From Polyangiales bacterium (lineage in GTDB: Bacteria > Myxococcota_A > Polyangia > Polyangiales > Polyangiaceae), in contig JBBQWQ010000078.1 in NCBI GenBank assembly GCA_038210445.1, forward strand, positions 59 through 32,058: a stretch of DNA of 32,000 nt, given 5' to 3'. Both the position numbers and the translations under genes were made by a program. The notes under the pieces were generated by a model. It ran no database searches. It had not been told where the DNA came from and was given only the letters and a program-made list of their open reading frames with translations. Below, piece after piece: positions 22,326 through 26,133 of the stretch. Numbering within the stretch: the first letter of the stretch is position 1; each line of letters starts with the position of its first letter.

Positions 22326-22398
22326 TGGGTCATCTGCGAATCGAACGCAGTGCAGGCTCCGTATCAGAGAGCCCAGGGTAACCAACCCGTCATGACCC
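22326..22398 (-). tRNA. tRNA-Ile (anticodon GAU)
   Basis: Minus strand: GGGTCAT GA CGGG-TTGGTTAC-CCTG G GCTCT-CTGATAC-GGAGC CTGCA CTGCG-TTCGATT-CGCAG ATGACCC A. 7-bp acceptor and canonical T-loop. G8 replaces U8. No encoded CCA. Confidence 0.75.
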
Positions 22399-22544
22399 AG
22401 GCGCACATGAGCTCGCCATTCCGCAAATGAAGCGATGCCAAGGGCCGCCGAGAGAGCCTGCTCTACCGTTGAGCTACGCGCCTTCAAGCAGGCGCGACGG
22501 GACTCGAACCCGCAACAATGTACTCCCAGCTTCATGCATCGCAG
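22399..22544 (-). ncRNA. YrlA-like Y RNA candidate 1 (circularly permuted tRNA-like module)
   Basis: Minus strand: ...ATGAAGC TGGGAGTACATTGTT GCGGG-TTCGAGT-CCCGT CGCGCCT GCTTGA AGGCGCG TA GCTC-AACGGTA-GAGC A GGCTC...GCTTCAT... A canonical T arm is followed by the 3' acceptor strand, a 6-nt cap, the 5' acceptor strand (7 bp perfect), U8 A9 and a canonical D arm. The distal ATGAAGC/GCTTCAT 7-bp helix joins the 5' and 3' parts. It lies same-strand, downstream of rsr, between tRNA-Pro and tRNA-Ile. Exact ends are unknown. Confidence 0.6.
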
Positions 22545-22617
22545 TCTGAACGCCGAGATTCGAACTCGGATCGACTGGTCCCGAACCAGTCACTCTACCA
22601 GGTTGAGCTACATCCAG
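22545..22617 (-). tRNA. tRNA-Pro (anticodon CGG)
   Basis: CTGGATG TA GCTC-AACCTGGTA-GAGT G ACTGG-TTCGGGA-CCAGT CGAT CCGAG-TTCGAAT-CTCGG CGTTCAG A. C1-G72, G37 and A73 as in bacterial tRNA-Pro. Two G:U pairs in the acceptor. Confidence 0.85.
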
Positions 22618-22706
22618 AAGGAAGAGAGGCAGCAAAAGGAGCGAAGACCGTGTGCCTTGCGGCACCGAGTACGAGTCGGTGTAGTCCTCGCGAGCATCTG
22701 CCTCAG
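22618..22706 (-). ncRNA. structured 89-nt spacer, possible small RNA (not tRNA-shaped)
   Basis: Outer helix GAGGCAG (22704-22698) / CTGCCTC (22632-22626). Second helix GCGAGGAC / GTCTTCGC (8 bp, one G:U). Two inner hairpins: CCGA-CTCGTAC-TCGG and TGCC-GCAA-GGCA (GNRA loop). Confidence 0.3.
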
Positions 22707-22779
22707 AGCCGCCTGCGGGAGTTGCACCCGCGGATCCCTCGTTACGAGTGAGGGCGCTCCGCTCCAGAGCGAAGGCGGC
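22707..22779 (-). tRNA. tRNA-like, Thr (anticodon CGU), non-canonical
   Basis: GCCGCCT TC GCTC-TGGAGCG-GAGC G CCCTC A-CTCGTAA-C GAGGG ATCC GCGGG-TGCAACT-CCCGC AGGCGGC T. Perfect acceptor, but an A31:C39 mismatch (or a 9-nt loop) and a T-loop with G55. Confidence 0.55.
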
Positions 22780-22871
22780 GTAGTTGACCGTCAAGAGTCG
22801 GGGAGACACGAAACCGCCTGGCCTGCTTCGCGAGCAGGTTCGGTCGTCCGAGATTCGAGCTCGAGGGTCAG
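22780..22871 (-). ncRNA. possible third permuted tRNA-like element (weak)
   Basis: TCGAG-CTCGAAT-CTCGG (T-arm-like), ACGACCG, an inserted hairpin CCTGCT-CGCGA-AGCAGG, then CGGT(TT)CGT, which can pair back to ACGACCG. A short closing helix TGACC/GGTCA joins the ends. There is no room for a normal cloverleaf. Confidence 0.25.
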
Positions 22872-22942
22872 AGCGACAACCGGGAATCGCACCCGGATCC
22901 CGAGAGTGGCGCTCTCGAATTCTACTGTTGAACCATTGTCGC
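22872..22942 (-). tRNA. tRNA-like, Gly (anticodon GCC), non-canonical
   Basis: GCGACAA TG GTTC-AACAGTA-GAAT T CGAGA-GCGCCAC-TCTCG GGAT CCGGG-TGCGATT-CCCGG TTGTCGC T. Acceptor and anticodon stems are perfect and U73 fits Gly. C33 replaces U33, the D-loop lacks GG, and the T-loop has G55. Confidence 0.6.
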
Positions 22943-22973
22943 AATCACACAGCGCGGCGAGGGCGCCGCACAG

Positions 22974-23046
22974 AGCCACCGCCGAGACTTGCACTCGGCG
23001 TTTCCTCCGTACCGGGGAGGCGCCCCGCTCTCTGGGCTTCGGTGGC
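22974..23046 (-). tRNA. tRNA-like, Thr (anticodon GGU), non-canonical
   Basis: GCCACCG AA GCCC-AGAGAGCG-GGGC G CCTCC-CCGGTAC-GGAGG AAACG CCGAG-TGCAAGT-CTCGG CGGTGGC T. All four stems are perfect. A8, C33, a D-loop without GG, and a T-loop with G55. Confidence 0.55.
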
Positions 23047-23121
23047 AAGAACGTGCGCTCGGCAGCAAGGGGTTACGGAGACTTCGTTTTGTGAGTGTAG
23101 TCCCCGCAGCATCTGCCGCGG

Positions 23122-23202
23122 TGGGTAGCCCCGGAGTCGCACCGGGTGTGGTGAACCAAGCGTGTTACAAGCGCCCTCCGCTCTCTACGGAAATAGCTAC
23201 CC
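23122..23202 (-). tRNA. tRNA-like, Tyr (anticodon GUA), class II with long variable arm, non-canonical
   Basis: GGGTAGC TA TTTCCGTAGAGAGCGGAG GGCGC-TTGTAAC-ACGCT TGGTTCACCACA CCCGG-TGCGACT-CCGGG GCTACCC A. 7-bp acceptor, A73, and a 12-nt variable arm (TGG-TTCA-CCA) as in bacterial tRNA-Tyr. C31:A39 mismatch, D-loop without GG, G55. Confidence 0.55.
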
Positions 23203-23294
23203 GAGAAGCTCGGCGACGCGTCCGCTGGGGCGCGCCGCCGAGGAAGGAGGCGACTGCCATTGGCAGCCGGTTCGTTCGCGCGAGGGCAAACCCC

Positions 23295-25340: not shown

Positions 25341-25372
25341 ACGAGAGCACCCATCGCCGCACAGCGCGGCCG

Positions 25373-25443
25373 CGGGTCGTGAAGGAATCGAACCTTCTCT
25401 CCGAGGGTTGGAAGCTCGGCCGGTCACCATGACTCTACGGCCC
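25373..25443 (-). tRNA. tRNA-like, Trp (anticodon CCA), irregular
   Basis: GGGCCGT AG A GTC-ATGGT-GAC CGGC CGAGC-TTCCAAC-CCTCG GAGA GAAGG-TTCGATT-CCTTC ACGACCC G. Canonical T arm, and G73 fits Trp. C4:A69 mismatch, A8, only a 3-bp D stem, C31:C39 mismatch (or a 9-nt loop). Confidence 0.5.
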
Positions 25444-25578
25444 AAGAGAAGTGACGAGTGTTGCCAAGAGCTCATTGCCCGCCGAAGGTTGGGCACGCCT
25501 CCAGGGAAAGCGGGCTCATCACCCGCGGCGGAGGCGTTTGGAATCGAACCCATGTACTCCAAGCTGCATTCACTTCAG
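25444..25578 (-). ncRNA. YrlA-like Y RNA candidate 2 (circularly permuted tRNA-like module)
   Basis: Minus strand: GAAGTGA ATGCAGCTTGGAGTACAT GGG-TTCGATT-CCA AA CGCCTCC [GCC GCGGG-TGATGAG-CCCGC TTTCCCT] GGAGGCG T GCCC-AACCTTCGGC-GGGC AATGAGCTCTTGGCAACACTCG TCACTTC. The 7-bp acceptor-like helix CGCCTCC/GGAGGCG is capped by an inserted hairpin. The terminal helix is GAAGTGA/TCACTTC. It shares the AGCTKGGAGTACAT and CTTGGCA motifs with candidate 1. Confidence 0.5.
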
Positions 25579-25650
25579 CGCCCCGTACGGGAATCGAACC
25601 CGTCTCACCCCATAGACAGTGGAGCTGCGACGCCAGTCGCATCACGAGGC
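25579..25650 (-). tRNA. tRNA-Asp (anticodon GUC)
   Basis: GCCTCGT GA TGCG-ACTGGCGT-CGCA G CTCCA-CTGTCTA-TGGGG TGAG ACGGG-TTCGATT-CCCGT ACGGGGC G. G73 as in bacterial tRNA-Asp. G8 and a pyrimidine at position 37 are unusual. Confidence 0.8.
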
Positions 25651-25690
25651 AGATACAGCGTGACCTACCCGCGTGTAGAGGCACGGGCAG

Positions 25691-25763
25691 TGGGTCGTGG
25701 TGGGCTCGCACCACCTTCTCCTGGGCTTCAGCCAAGCGCTATCCTTCGACTAGCTCACGACCC
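25691..25763 (-). tRNA. tRNA-Phe (anticodon GAA), T-loop variant
   Basis: GGGTCGT GA GCTA-GTCGAAGGA-TAGC G CTTGG-CTGAAGC-CCAGG AGAA GGTGG-TGCGAGC-CCACC ACGACCC A. Perfect acceptor and A73. G8, and a T-loop with G55. Confidence 0.7.
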
Positions 25764-25767
25764 GCAG

Positions 25768-25839
25768 AGTCAGCGGAGGGAATCGAACCCTCTCCTCCCC
25801 GGTTAACAGCCGGGTGCTCGACCATCGAGCTCCACTGAC
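25768..25839 (-). tRNA. tRNA-Asn (anticodon GUU)
   Basis: GTCAGTG GA GCTC-GATGGTC-GAGC A CCCGG-CTGTTAA-CCGGG GAGGA GAGGG-TTCGATT-CCCTC CGCTGAC T. Canonical apart from G8 and U73. Confidence 0.85.
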
Positions 25840-25921
25840 ACGCTCGCTTGCCTGCGCCGTGGCGGGGCGTGCAGTGATCGGTCGATCGTGCACGGACCGG
25901 CAGGGCGCAGGGTCGCGAGTC

Positions 25922-25950
25922 GACGAGCGCATCTGCTGGATGCGCTCGTC
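25922..25950 (-). other. 11-bp perfect stem-loop inside the 220-nt Lys-Asn spacer
   Basis: GACGAGCGCAT-(7 nt)-ATGCGCTCGTC read directly from the sequence. A second closed stem CCTGCGCC/GGCGCAGG spans 25851..25911. Confidence 0.7.
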
Positions 25951-26061
25951 CGTGGCACCAAGTTTTCAAAGAGCGTGGCCGTCCGCCGGGGCGGAGATGG
26001 CATCGAGGTCGCACGTCTCCCGATAATCCGTGCAGAGCGCACGAAAGTCGGTGGACACGAG

Positions 26062-26133
26062 TGGGACCGGAGGGATTCGAACCCCCATCTCATCGGTTAA
26101 AAGCCGAGTGCGCTGCCGTTGCGCCACGGACCC
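26062..26133 (-). tRNA. tRNA-Lys (anticodon UUU), first gene of the array
   Basis: GGGTCCG TG GCGC-AACGGCA-GCGC A CTCGG-CTTTTAA-CCGAT GAGAT GGGGG-TTCGAAT-CCCTC CGGTCCC A. Canonical loops and A73. U4:U69 and C27:U43 mismatches. Confidence 0.8.

Follow-up and report, generated by a model that had tools for sequence, protein, structure and literature searches.

We identified a compact block of 16 tRNA or tRNA-like genes, four Y RNAs, a gene for the Ro60 orthologue Rsr and a gene for an HNH nuclease in a soil myxobacterium. The block occupies the minus strand between about 26.2 and 21.5 kb of the window, the whole 32-kb stretch of DNA analysed, which is nearly an entire MAG contig. We suggest that it is probably a horizontally spread, HNH-associated accessory tRNA array, of the kind described as L-arrays or tRNA array units, fused with an Rsr (Ro60)/Y-RNA module, and we propose a mechanism for it. 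The comparisons below draw on 23 related loci selected by Rsr similarity alone, with tRNAs called in the DNA around rsr.

Organization of the block

The features are listed in the order in which they lie on the minus strand.

26416..26457, minus, terminator-like hairpin and U-tract (GAAGGCCGCC...GGCGGCCUUC GGUCGUUUUG), upstream of the block
26061..26133, minus, tRNA-Lys(UUU), canonical (ARAGORN; Rfam tRNA model, 62.1 bits)
25840..26060, minus, 221-nt spacer with 12-bp hairpin (no Rfam match)
25767..25839, minus, tRNA-Asn(GUU), canonical (ARAGORN; Rfam tRNA model, 56.7 bits)
25690..25763, minus, tRNA-Phe(GAA)-like, T-loop UGCGAGC (ARAGORN ps80 only; Rfam, 20.6 bits; comparative cloverleaf)
25578..25650, minus, tRNA-Asp(GUC), U37, anticodon loop CUGUCUA (ARAGORN)
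25449..25575, minus, Y1, YrlA-type Y RNA variant, Ro-binding stem and three internal hairpins (stem-motif search; fold)
25372..25443, minus, tRNA-Trp(CCA), weak D arm (ARAGORN; Rfam, 22.4 bits)
25267..25339, minus, tRNA-His(GUG), encoded G-1, A73 (ARAGORN; 46.2 bits)
25185..25257, minus, tRNA-Ala(UGC), G3:U70, A73 (ARAGORN; Rfam tRNA model)
25086..25157, minus, tRNA-Gly(UCC), U73 (ARAGORN; Rfam tRNA model)
24998..25067, minus, tRNA-Cys(GCA)-like, short D arm, T-loop UUUGAUU (ARAGORN 80%, sub-threshold; comparative fold)
24914..24986, minus, tRNA-Arg(CCG) (ARAGORN; Rfam, 32.9 bits)
23295..24875, minus, rsr, Ro60 orthologue (TROVE and vWA), 526 aa (Pfam vWA_Ro60 and TROVE; phrog_850)
23120..23202, minus, tRNA-Tyr(GUA)-like, class II variable arm, T-loop UGCGACU (ARAGORN ps80; partial comparative support)
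23060..23118, minus, Y2, short Y RNA, Ro-binding stem only (stem-motif search; fold; inner-helix covariation in the family)
22973..23046, minus, tRNA-Thr(GGU)-like, C33, UGC T-loop, no G18G19 (ARAGORN 80%; comparative fold)
22871..22942, minus, tRNA-Gly(GCC), C33, UGC T-loop, D-loop without GG (ARAGORN; 48.8 bits)
22780..22870, minus, 91-nt spacer with T-arm-like hairpin (repeat family D1; no Rfam match)
22706..22779, minus, tRNA-Thr(CGU), T-loop UGCAACU (ARAGORN)
22627..22703, minus, Y3, short Y RNA, two apical hairpins (stem-motif search; fold)
22544..22617, minus, tRNA-Pro(CGG), C1-G72, G37, A73 (ARAGORN; Rfam tRNA model)
22429..22542, minus, Y4, YrlA, Y RNA with tRNA-like domain (Rfam RF02553)
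22324..22398, minus, tRNA-Ile(GAU) (ARAGORN; no Rfam tRNA match)
21664..22212, minus, HNH endonuclease, 182 aa, last gene of the block (Pfam HNH_5/HNH; phrog_16726)
21463..21481, minus, terminator-like hairpin 3' of the HNH gene (consensus scan only)

With default settings, ARAGORN called 12 of the 16 tRNAs, all on the minus strand between 22324 and 26133 and with the anticodons given in an earlier sequence-only reading of this DNA. The other four (Phe, Cys, Tyr and Thr GGU) were recovered at the positions of that reading when the threshold was lowered to 80% (ps80). As this setting also yields seven spurious calls, within the rsr coding sequence or antisense, the four are sub-threshold when taken alone. 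Comparative folding showed that they correspond to ARAGORN-called tRNAs of relatives, mostly with compensatory changes: against such homologues from the related loci, the Thr GGU, Cys and Phe folds each contain 22 pairs, of which 10, 16 and 13, respectively, are compensatory, and the support for Tyr is weaker and partial. The default calls, the 80% calls and the comparative folds together confirm the earlier count of 16 loci on one strand with 16 different anticodons. No CCA is encoded in register in any of the 16 genes, as also proposed before, and the trailers of 11 of them begin with C-U-G.

The spacers between tRNAs had been described as mostly short. This is accurate for 8 of 14 (3-40 nt), but four longer ones contain the Y RNAs and two measure 221 nt and 91 nt. 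The 91-nt spacer is about 70 nt longer than its equivalent in the close relatives L001 and L009 (22 nt), and the sequences of both relatives are incomplete at the position of the 221-nt spacer. In L002, L005, L006 and L021, the rsr module is preceded by copies of the upstream hairpin (26416..26457) that are 80-86% identical, and we interpret this hairpin as ending the preceding unit and insulating the module. Consensus scans for sigma-70 and sigma-54 promoters upstream of tRNA-Lys gave nothing convincing.

The rsr open reading frame is intact, with AGGAGG 7 nt upstream of its ATG, and its product matches Deinococcus radiodurans Rsr (PDB 2NVO) over the full length, which together with the Pfam domains upholds its identification as a Ro60 orthologue. 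PADLOC returned no defence match for Rsr. A gene for RtcB lies 14 kb from the block on the opposite strand.

Y RNAs interleaved with tRNAs

The four Y RNAs, one of them YrlA, lie on the same strand as the tRNAs and are interleaved with them, each starting 1-3 nt past one tRNA and stopping 5-34 nt short of the next. Y1 starts 2 nt past Asp and ends 5 nt short of Trp, and Y3 starts 2 nt past Thr(CGU) and ends 9 nt short of Pro. Y4 matches RF02553 over its full length (67.4 bits against a gathering score of 69, E 2e-14) and is 97-99% identical in L001 and L009.

A stem-motif search of the 32-kb window found exactly four Y modules, every one within the block, and most of the 23 related loci carry 2-8 modules beside rsr. 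Orthologues of Y1 are found directly upstream of rsr in L001, L009 and L021. The Myxococcota loci share the order tRNA-Y-tRNA, with 2-12 nt from the upstream tRNA to the Y module. The inner Y helix covaries, with a perfect 7/7 complement in 49 of 64 modules compared with 5.9 in partner shuffles.

Canonical and aberrant tRNAs

About seven of the 16 tRNAs look canonical. Seven genes score 46-62 bits against the Rfam tRNA model, Arg scores 33 bits, and Trp and Phe score 21-22 bits. Asp and Cys match only the Rfam tRNA-Sec model (32 and 23 bits, respectively), and Ile, both Thr genes and Tyr have no match in the Rfam tRNA clan at E<=10. Six genes have a T-loop triplet other than UUC, which is UGC with G55 in five of them, and two of the six also have C33. 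The seventh aberrant gene is Asp, with U37. C33, U37 and the UGC T-loop break near-universal tRNA rules, yet the genes that carry them are still 92-100% conserved.

These features recur elsewhere. The UGC T-loop of Thr GGU is kept in 5/5 homologues; the Asp loop CUGUCUA is also present in L004, L006 and L015, and L005 has U37 as well (loop UUGUCUA). Across the ARAGORN calls of all related loci, which include a few non-array tRNAs, approximately 13% have C33 and approximately 12% have a T-loop that departs from UUYNA, mostly as UGC.

Many identity elements are retained, including G3:U70 in Ala, U73 in both Gly genes and Cys, G73 in Asp and Trp, C1-G72 in Pro and G-1 in His, as previously noted, but His has A73. 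The discriminator of bacterial tRNA-His is normally C73. The proposal that these are chargeable tRNAs rather than decayed copies is half right: the array elements are not decaying, because they are 92-100% conserved compared with 86.5% for the flanking genes, but the six non-UUC T-loops, C33 and U37 depart from standard tRNAs.

The block's aberrant genes resemble the staphylococcal non-proteogenic tRNA-Gly, which also has UGC in place of UUC in the T-loop (PMC7826273), and therefore no pseudouridine-55 site, and whose missing D-loop GG is paralleled in Gly-GCC and Thr-GGU. This is a resemblance only: the block's UGC genes carry other identities (Thr, Tyr, Phe and Gly), and no Fem-type transferase is in view. 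Alternatively, the array may consist mostly of non-translational RNAs, the tRNA-like elements being processing punctuation that frees the Y RNAs and mRNAs and/or Rsr clients or nuclease-soaking decoys. On the Rfam tRNA model, nine of the 16 genes either stay under 35 bits or have no score, five share the UGC triplet that marks the staphylococcal tRNA, C33 occurs in two and U37 in one, Y RNAs abut tRNA ends, and strong conservation despite such defects argues for a selected, non-standard role. We nevertheless regard this alternative as unlikely, given the seven genes at 46-62 bits, the retained identity elements and the non-redundant anticodons, which are hard to account for without decoding or charging. 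In addition, the arrays of related Acidobacteriota loci are canonical, encode CCA and reach 26 genes.

Conservation and genomic context

The genes flanking the block are collinear with two related MAG contigs, placing it at the same chromosomal site in three genomes and bearing out the chromosomal location claimed for it. The tRNA and tRNA-like genes share 92-100% identity with their L001 and L009 counterparts, the flanking genes 86.5%, and the spacers are mostly unalignable. Specifically, identity in L001 and L009 is 100% for Asp, 99-100% for Arg, 97-99% for Thr GGU, 97% for Ile (91% in L004), 94% for Trp and 92% for Tyr; Phe is 100% identical to L001:49-112 over 86% of the gene length. The rsr gene is 94% identical at the nucleotide level in relatives.

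An ordinary housekeeping tRNA operon that flanks rsr by chance would also show intact identity elements, no duplicated anticodon and a stable chromosomal position. We consider this highly improbable, since universal positions are broken in genes for amino acids with a single isoacceptor (Phe, Tyr, Cys and Asp) and the array lacks Met, Leu, Ser, Val, Glu and Gln. Array content also varies among close relatives: His is present in L009 and absent at the same position in L001, and the window lacks Pro-UGG, Met and Gln. Furthermore, Ile-GAU and Ala-UGC are usually found within rRNA operons (PMC8421152), and three phyla and a phage show the same architecture, HNH gene included.

Recurrence across phyla and in phage Mx1

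Twelve of the 23 related loci, with Myxococcota, Acidobacteriota and Planctomycetota represented, have 6-26 tRNAs around rsr. Ten related loci carry an HNH homologue within or next to the array, and Myxococcus phage Mx1 carries one in its tRNA region; RtcB homologues are found in 10 related loci, and GOLLD RNA in L012 only. There are 336 phage records with a Ro homologue. The best phage match of Rsr is the Mx1 TROVE protein (46.5% amino acid identity), whose gene sits among tRNAs and beside an HNH gene 41% identical to that of the window. This agrees with the previous likening of the block to a phage-style, non-redundant array around Ro60. We detected no nucleotide similarity between the array tRNAs and those of Mx1; the phage link is therefore old and rests on the two proteins. 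Neither Rfam nor the stem motif revealed a Y RNA in the Mx1 region.

The block might instead be an inert remnant of a prophage or mobile element, its tRNA cluster, Ro and HNH genes derived from a myxophage, kept by chance and functionless today. The best homologues of both proteins do occur together in the Mx1 tRNA region, GC falls to 0.60-0.64 over the block, and GC3 of the HNH gene is lower (0.75). Such a remnant is difficult to reconcile with the family search, which found neither structural nor integrase nor any other phage families in the 32-kb window (for structural genes, as claimed before), or with a site shared by three genomes with flanks that are down to 86.5% identity. The RNA genes remain conserved while spacers decay, rsr is intact, 94% identical and host-like in GC3 (0.87), and Y stem pairing is maintained through compensatory changes. 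Thus, we find a functionless remnant improbable and favor the accessory array fused with an Rsr/Y-RNA module.

Comparison with known systems

Translational stress induces L-arrays, which are supernumerary, spread horizontally and have a homing HNH gene and RtcB as neighbors (PMC8421152); mycobacterial arrays have a conserved HNH gene (PMC5966550, PMC12803027). Like L-arrays and tRNA array units, the block and its relatives combine many co-oriented, tightly spaced tRNA genes of near non-redundant anticodons, a conserved HNH (homing) endonuclease gene within the array or next to it, nearby genes for RtcB and RNA processing, a patchy spread over phyla and, in some arrays (here L012), GOLLD RNA. 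Unlike them, the present array surrounds rsr, is interleaved with four Y RNAs and includes many members that violate tRNA invariants; its 16 genes are also below the 20-gene cut-off that formally defines a tRNA array unit. Rsr, TROVE and Y RNA are not mentioned in the L-array and Mycobacterium array papers (PMC8421152, PMC5966550, PMC12803027), a set that does not extend to the survey of Tran et al.

The RNA repair operon rsr-yrlBA-rtcBA of Salmonella Typhimurium and the Rsr/Y RNA/PNPase system of D. radiodurans likewise pair a Ro60 orthologue with several same-strand Y RNAs, one of which, YrlA, has a tRNA-like domain; the Y stem motif is of the same type (G-N-C-G-A-A-(U)-G with a paired lower stem), and loci related to the block carry RtcB. 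The block differs in having four Y RNAs rather than two, placed between tRNA genes, and 16 tRNA or tRNA-like genes in the same apparent unit. RtcA and RtcR are absent from the block, as is any convincing sigma-54 promoter, and the RtcB gene is 14 kb away. Phage tRNA clusters that bear Ro (Mx1, cluster C mycobacteriophages such as Bxz1/Catera, and Streptomyces phages) also hold a TROVE gene and HNH among tRNAs, but the block is chromosomal, free of phage genes and syntenic in three genomes, and far denser than Mx1, where about 21 tRNAs are scattered over 17.6 kb among many ORFs. The initial interpretation is partly supported: it left out the Y RNAs, the conserved HNH gene, the link to L-arrays and tRNA array units, and the recurrence across phyla.

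Proposed mechanism and implications

We propose that a single promoter between the upstream hairpin and tRNA-Lys would give rise to one long precursor, from which RNase P, together with a 3' endonuclease (for example, RNase Z), could cut out the CCA-less tRNAs. Because the Y RNAs are closely bounded by tRNAs, the same cuts would also free all four Y RNAs together with the mRNAs of rsr and HNH. The conserved stem of the Y RNAs would be the binding site for Rsr. A role in tRNA decay, or in competition with nucleases, has been suggested for Rsr and Y RNA (PMC7790460), and the Rsr-Y RNPs of this organism may remove or protect tRNAs that are damaged or misfolded.

The roughly ten tRNAs whose T-loops are normal may supply a spare, near non-redundant decoding set. 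Anticodon-loop changes in phage tRNAs are predicted to resist anticodon nucleases (PMC10264068); by analogy, we predict that C33 or U37 loops, or remodelled elbows (UGC T-loop, no G18G19), might make the aberrant members poor substrates for tRNA nucleases or divert them from the ribosome. An RNA ligase such as RtcB, present in the module of relatives, could reseal tRNAs, and the HNH nuclease may promote spread and cassette turnover. Overall, the block may insure the tRNA pool against translational stress, or attack by toxins or phages. With kin in three bacterial phyla and a myxophage, the block links bacterial Ro to unusually built, probably spare tRNAs.

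A co-directional tRNA array around rsr

ARAGORN at its default threshold called 12 tRNA genes on the minus strand between 22324 and 26133, with the anticodons Lys UUU, Asn GUU, Asp GUC, Trp CCA, His GUG, Ala UGC, Gly UCC, Arg CCG, Gly GCC, Thr CGU, Pro CGG and Ile GAU. A sequence-only reading of this DNA had hand-folded 16 tRNA or tRNA-like genes, and the other four (Phe GAA, Cys GCA, Tyr GUA and Thr GGU) were recovered at the positions it gave when the threshold was lowered to 80% of the default. Because this setting also returned seven spurious calls, within the rsr coding sequence or antisense to real tRNAs, these sub-threshold genes need outside support. 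Each is homologous to an ARAGORN-called tRNA with the same anticodon at a related locus, and RNAalifold with these homologues gave cloverleaves of 22 pairs, of which 10 (Thr GGU), 16 (Cys) and 13 (Phe) are compensatory; comparative support for the Tyr cloverleaf was weaker than for these three. All 16 anticodons differ and none of the genes encodes CCA in register, as the reading had also held.

Features of the block and of its surroundings

26416-26457, minus, terminator-like hairpin upstream of the module, conserved in four other Myxococcota loci
25690-25763, minus, tRNA-Phe GAA (ARAGORN at 80% of default threshold)
25449-25575, minus, Y1, YrlA-like variant (regular-expression and stem search)
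24998-25067, minus, tRNA-Cys GCA (ARAGORN at 80% of default threshold)
23295-24875, minus, rsr, Ro60 orthologue of 526 aa (Pfam vWA_Ro60 and TROVE, PF25045 and PF05731)
23120-23202, minus, tRNA-Tyr GUA (ARAGORN at 80% of default threshold)
23060-23118, minus, Y2, short (regular-expression and stem search)
22973-23046, minus, tRNA-Thr GGU (ARAGORN at 80% of default threshold)
22627-22703, minus, Y3, short (regular-expression and stem search)
22429-22542, minus, Y4, a probable YrlA RNA between tRNA-Pro and tRNA-Ile (Rfam and stem search)
21664-22212, minus, HNH endonuclease (HNH_5, Pfam) at the end of the block
8221-9390, plus (opposite to the block), RtcB, 14 kb from rsr

Along the minus strand in the 5' to 3' direction, the block runs Lys, a 221-nt spacer, Asn, Phe, Asp, Y1, Trp, His, Ala, Gly-UCC, Cys, Arg, rsr, Tyr, Y2, Thr-GGU, Gly-GCC, a 91-nt spacer, Thr-CGU, Y3, Pro, YrlA, Ile and the HNH endonuclease gene. 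Spacers within the array measure 3-40 nt, apart from those that hold Y RNAs or rsr and the two unexplained ones of 221 and 91 nt, in which Rfam matched nothing at E≤10. The Rsr protein matches D. radiodurans Rsr over its full length (PDB 2NVO, residues 17-511). In the 3' trailers, the discriminator is followed by C-U-G in 10 of the 16 tRNA or tRNA-like genes and by C-U-A in Cys, while the remainder have C-G-G or C-C-N at the position of CCA; the common trailer sequence may represent a shared 3'-processing context.

A second terminator-like site follows the HNH gene, and scans with sigma-70 and sigma-54 consensus sequences found no convincing promoter upstream of tRNA-Lys. Farther upstream on the minus strand, the region 26490-26966 has a sigma-70-like promoter match together with an overlapping partial sigma-54 -24 element at 26937-26966. 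Downstream of these lie some 450 nt of sequence lower in GC, with a 107-aa ORF lacking assignment and two successive terminator-like hairpins (26489-26504 and 26416-26457); a small gene or non-coding RNA could be encoded here, shortly before the block. GGGAAC/GGGACC hexamers are repeated in succession between the conserved hairpin and the first tRNA (26316-26360, minus). Immediately 5' of the HNH start codon, a polypurine tract (22217-22249, minus), which contains a mini-ORF reading MERKRKKRKR-stop, may be a leader or ribosome-binding region.

Y RNAs between tRNA genes

The sequence-only reading overlooked the four Y RNAs of the block, which were found by Rfam and by a stem search. A sensitive Rfam scan matched YrlA (RF02553), a type of Y RNA that has a tRNA-like domain, over its full length at 67.4 bits, against a curated gathering score of 69 (E 2e-14), and the fold shows a T-arm, an acceptor-like hairpin and a D-arm. 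Rfam detected none of Y1, Y2 and Y3 at E≤10. The regular-expression and stem search counted exactly four Y modules in the 32-kb window, all of them on the minus strand and within the block. In their shared fold, the outer stem leads through a 5' internal loop, AUG(C/A)N, into the inner stem, after which comes UACA; beyond apical hairpins that vary, the inner stem returns, and a 3' internal loop with (C)UUG at its end precedes the return of the outer stem. The G-N-C-G-A-A-(N)-G motif described for YrlA RNAs by Chen et al. 2014 corresponds to this fold of the long spacers.

The same search found two to eight Y modules adjoining rsr in most of 23 related loci, a sample retrieved solely by Rsr similarity (50-97% at the amino-acid level) and so a similarity-picked one, not an unbiased survey. 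The outer stem covaries across 64 modules; since pairing there was a search criterion and pairing of the inner helix was not, the inner helix provides an independent test. A perfect 7/7 complement of the 7-mer preceding UACA is present in 49 of the 64 modules, with 43 different 7-mers, against a mean of 5.9 and a maximum of 14 in 500 shuffles of the partners, and this excess indicates that the modules are real Y-RNA stems. RNAalifold on the trimmed stems returned the outer helix only, as the length of the 3' internal loop varies, and the inner helix was tested with a partner-shuffle script.

Within the block, each Y RNA starts 1-3 nt past the end of a tRNA or tRNA-like gene and ends 5-34 nt before the next one. 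This tRNA-Y-tRNA arrangement recurs in five Myxococcota loci: L003, L004, L005 and the contigs of two close-relative metagenome-assembled genomes (MAGs), L001 and L009. At the Acidobacteriota, Planctomycetota and Hahella loci the Y cluster lies downstream of rsr, separate from any array. All four of the Planctomycetota loci L015, L016, L017 and L019 have a tRNA-Gln(CUG) among the Y modules about 200 nt downstream of rsr, which is a second, independent kind of tRNA-Y interleaving. The Hahella sp. NBU794 locus carries eight tandem Y modules directly 3' of rsr, YrlA-like and short forms alternating (L018:7825-8931, plus strand), and no tRNA gene was called there. In the survey of Chen et al. 2014, candidates overlapping tandem tRNA genes were discarded and few YrlA RNAs were listed in delta-proteobacteria. 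The window and its related loci add many unannotated Y RNAs, short forms included.

Departures from tRNA invariants

Canonical tRNAs share U33, a purine at position 37, U54-U55-C56 and G18G19, and pseudouridine at position 55 is near-universal. In the block, seven of the 16 genes (Lys, Ala, Pro, Gly-UCC, Asn, Gly-GCC and His) score 46-62 bits on the Rfam tRNA model, and scores are weak or absent in the other nine: Arg reaches 33 bits, Trp 22 and Phe 21, the sole Rfam match of Asp and Cys is to the tRNA-Sec model, and Ile, both Thr genes and Tyr have no tRNA-clan match in Rfam. The acceptor and discriminator features that the sequence-only reading had named for Ala, Pro, Gly, Cys, Asp and Trp are present; tRNA-His does encode G-1, but carries A73.

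The defects are specific, not random. Five genes (Phe, Tyr, Thr-GGU, Gly-GCC and Thr-CGU) have a UGCRANN T-loop, which places G at position 55, and the T-loop of Cys reads UUUGAUU. Gly-GCC and Thr-GGU lack the D-loop GG and have C33, and Asp has U37. The UGC T-loop of Thr-GGU is kept in five of five homologues from different Myxococcota families. Among the 214 ARAGORN-called tRNAs of all loci, about 28 have a residue other than U33, mostly C33, and about 26 have a T-loop other than UUYNA, mostly UGC; some of the non-U33 tRNAs are otherwise perfect and encode CCA, as in Pyrinomonadaceae Ala, Val, Ile and Pro genes.

A UGC/UGU T-loop triplet is a hallmark of the Staphylococcus non-proteogenic tRNA-Gly (PMC7826273), and UGC in place of UUC is common to the five genes of the block. 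Weak EF-Tu binding and service to a non-ribosomal aminoacyl transferase are further marks of the Staphylococcus type; no Fem-like gene was found in the window. For phage tRNAs, altered anticodon loops have been suggested to protect against the anticodon nucleases of the host (PMC10264068). The likenesses to the Staphylococcus tRNA-Gly and to such phage tRNAs are resemblances only. Alternatively, the array might serve a mostly non-translational role, its members acting as punctuation, decoys or Rsr clients. The altered loops speak for this reading and the retained acceptor and discriminator features against it; we regard it as unlikely.

Genomic setting and conservation

The window covers nearly the whole of a 32,059-bp contig from a Polyangiaceae MAG. 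Its flanking genes are ordinary (MacB/FtsX, ABC ATPase, HlyD, M90 peptidase, methyltransferase, SNF2/SWIM helicase, PBP and hydrolases). A PHROGs scan of 10 ORFs gave family matches for Rsr, HNH and RtcB only, and the ORFs outside this set have ordinary cellular domains in Pfam. These scans bear out the chromosomal setting free of phage structural genes that had been described from the sequence. A prophage reading of the block was rejected, given the lack of structural, packaging or integration genes among the scanned ORFs and the collinearity of the flanks with L001 and L009.

In these two close relatives the block occupies the same site, and the downstream genes are collinear at about 86.5% nucleotide identity. 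The tRNA and tRNA-like genes are 92-100% identical (Asp 100%, Arg 99-100%, Thr-GGU 97-99%, Gly-GCC 99%, Ile 97%, Tyr 92%), YrlA is 97-99% and rsr 94% identical, and the spacers are mostly unalignable. Faster evolution, at 77-83% identity, is seen in Y1-Y3, Cys and Thr-CGU. Content also varies: L009 has one additional Y and Pro-UGG unit and one Met-Gln pair, L001 lacks His at the position it has in the window, and, relative to both, 70 nt are inserted in the window between Gly-GCC and Thr-CGU. The spacer concerned (22780-22870, minus) is 91 nt long, against 22 nt in L001 and L009; the additional sequence includes a hairpin resembling a T-arm, CUCGAGCUCGAAUCUCGGA, and might be what is left of a lost tRNA cassette.

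Since the RNA genes are conserved above the level of the flanks and the content is variable, we conclude that the RNA genes are under selection and that whole cassettes come and go. An inert remnant of a mobile element is improbable. A housekeeping tRNA operon was rejected and seems to us very improbable: two genes have C33, one has U37, five have UGC T-loops, nine have weak or absent Rfam scores, and the content differs from that of L001 and L009.

Two further observations concern the plus-strand flank. At 7904-9390, an RbfA-like ORF of 106 aa (Pfam RBFA, E 4e-16) and the first part of the RtcB RNA ligase gene (389 aa) overlap, and the two look like a two-gene unit. RtcB2-PrfH is a ribosome-repair pair, which the pairing of an RbfA paralogue with RtcB recalls. 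The SNF2 helicase at 11351-15412 has 1353 aa and a SWIM zinc finger; its helicase half, and no other part, strongly matches the PADLOC DpdE and ZorD helicase models (E 1e-160), and no other Dpd or Zorya components were seen. PADLOC made no defence-system assignment for Rsr. The HNH protein matched in PADLOC through the generic HNH core only (PtuB or restriction enzyme), which we do not regard as functional evidence.

Recurrence across phyla and in a myxophage

In the DNA retrieved around rsr, 6-26 tRNAs were called in 12 of the 23 similarity-picked loci, with 20-26 in L004, L005, L007, L012 and L015. The twelve tRNA-rich loci come from Myxococcota, Acidobacteriota (Pyrinomonadaceae) and Planctomycetota (Phycisphaerae). 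Rsr-linked arrays are missing from some Rsr loci of the same phyla, a patchy distribution consistent with horizontal transfer. Ten related loci have homologues of the window HNH protein within or next to their arrays, and RtcB homologues lie within the module of 10. Labilithrix luteola DSM 27648, which can be cultivated, has an rsr-Y-tRNA-HNH locus. In the Pyrinomonadaceae MAG locus L012, the tRNA array upstream of rsr contains a GOLLD RNA (1322-1801, plus; RF02032, 176 bits against a gathering score of 150), in which a tRNA-like call is embedded. GOLLD was already linked to tRNA arrays, and this case adds Acidobacteriota and rsr loci to that link.

In a phage collection, the best match of Rsr was to Myxococcus phage Mx1 (46.5%, with 99% of the protein covered); searching viral_contigs with Rsr gave no relative. 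In Mx1, the TROVE gene is part of a loose tRNA cluster that also has an HNH gene, 41% identical to that of the window (E 1e-40), in agreement with the earlier view of a Ro gene beside a tRNA array as a phage-type arrangement. The Mx1 tRNAs show no nucleotide similarity to those of the array. Neither Rfam nor the Y motif search found a Y RNA in the Mx1 region.

Relation to known systems

The tRNA array unit of Tran et al. 2016 and the L-array of Santamaria-Gomez et al. 2021 are delimited by at least 20 tRNA genes at two or more per kb. The window array exceeds this density (about 4 per kb) and falls below the count, with 16 genes, or 12 at the default threshold, in 3.8 kb. All array genes lie on the minus strand at operon-like closeness, and the HNH_5 protein provides the associated HNH/homing endonuclease, an association described previously (PMC8421152, PMC5966550, PMC12803027). 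L-arrays are described as supernumerary arrays of horizontal origin that translational stress induces and that have a homing HNH gene and RtcB as neighbours (PMC8421152). Silence in normally growing cells is a further mark of the class. That the window array is likewise supernumerary, alongside a dispersed housekeeping set, is suggested indirectly by its variable content among close relatives and its departures from the invariants. Mycobacterial array units have a conserved HNH gene and have been discussed as possible anti-defence elements (PMC5966550, PMC12803027).

The Rsr/Y RNA ribonucleoprotein (RNP) module is represented by the TROVE ring and vWA domain of Rsr and by the four adjacent Y RNAs of the block, with a paired stem and a conserved, predicted Ro-binding motif; as in other such modules, Rsr would bind these RNAs and tether an exoribonuclease. 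The RtcB/RtcA and RtcR sigma-54 partners of the Salmonella type are absent from the block, with RtcB 14 kb away on the other strand; no RtcA or RtcR domain was found among the Pfam-scanned window ORFs, and no sigma-54 promoter upstream of the array. We propose that the block is probably an accessory tRNA array of the L-array or tRNA-array-unit type, fused with an Rsr/Y-RNA module in this lineage.

Proposed function and significance

The common orientation of the genes, their close spacing and the positions of the Y RNAs suggest a single precursor, which would be cut apart by tRNA-processing enzymes. Part of the tRNAs might serve as a spare decoding set. By analogy, members with altered loops may resist nucleases or avoid the ribosome, and Rsr-Y RNPs, whose binding is predicted, might clear or shield damaged tRNAs. 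Hughes et al. 2020 suggested that Rsr and Y RNA take part in tRNA decay or are competitors of an anticodon nuclease, and such a model would fit this.

We also advance a bolder proposal, doubtful as a whole: that the remodelled members (UGC T-loop without G18G19, C33, U37) are, rather than ordinary decoders, a dedicated nuclease-resistant or ribosome-avoiding class working with Rsr-Y RNPs, that the block is a mobile 'tRNA-pool insurance' common to large phages and chromosomes, and that YrlA-type Y RNAs arose in dense tandem tRNA arrays. The last part draws on the order of elements in YrlA, which is that of the junction between two tandem tRNAs.

Three parts of the picture were already known separately: HNH genes accompany tRNA arrays, Y RNAs accompany Rsr, and phage tRNA regions contain Ro homologues. 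Rsr, TROVE and Y RNA are not mentioned in three papers on bacterial arrays (Santamaria-Gomez 2021, Morgado & Vicente 2018, Yano 2026), and the combination may have been mentioned earlier elsewhere. Apparently new are the joining of array and Rsr/Y-RNA module on chromosomes of three phyla, the alternation of tRNAs and Y RNAs seen in Myxococcota, and the recurrent, conserved violations of tRNA invariants. The strongly conserved tRNAs that break the rules for U33, U55 and purine 37 are candidates for nuclease resistance or extra-ribosomal use. The fusion of array and Ro recurs in three phyla and one myxophage, and the physical fusion, with Y RNAs placed exactly between predicted tRNA processing sites, offers a concrete, testable link between Ro and maintenance of the tRNA pool.
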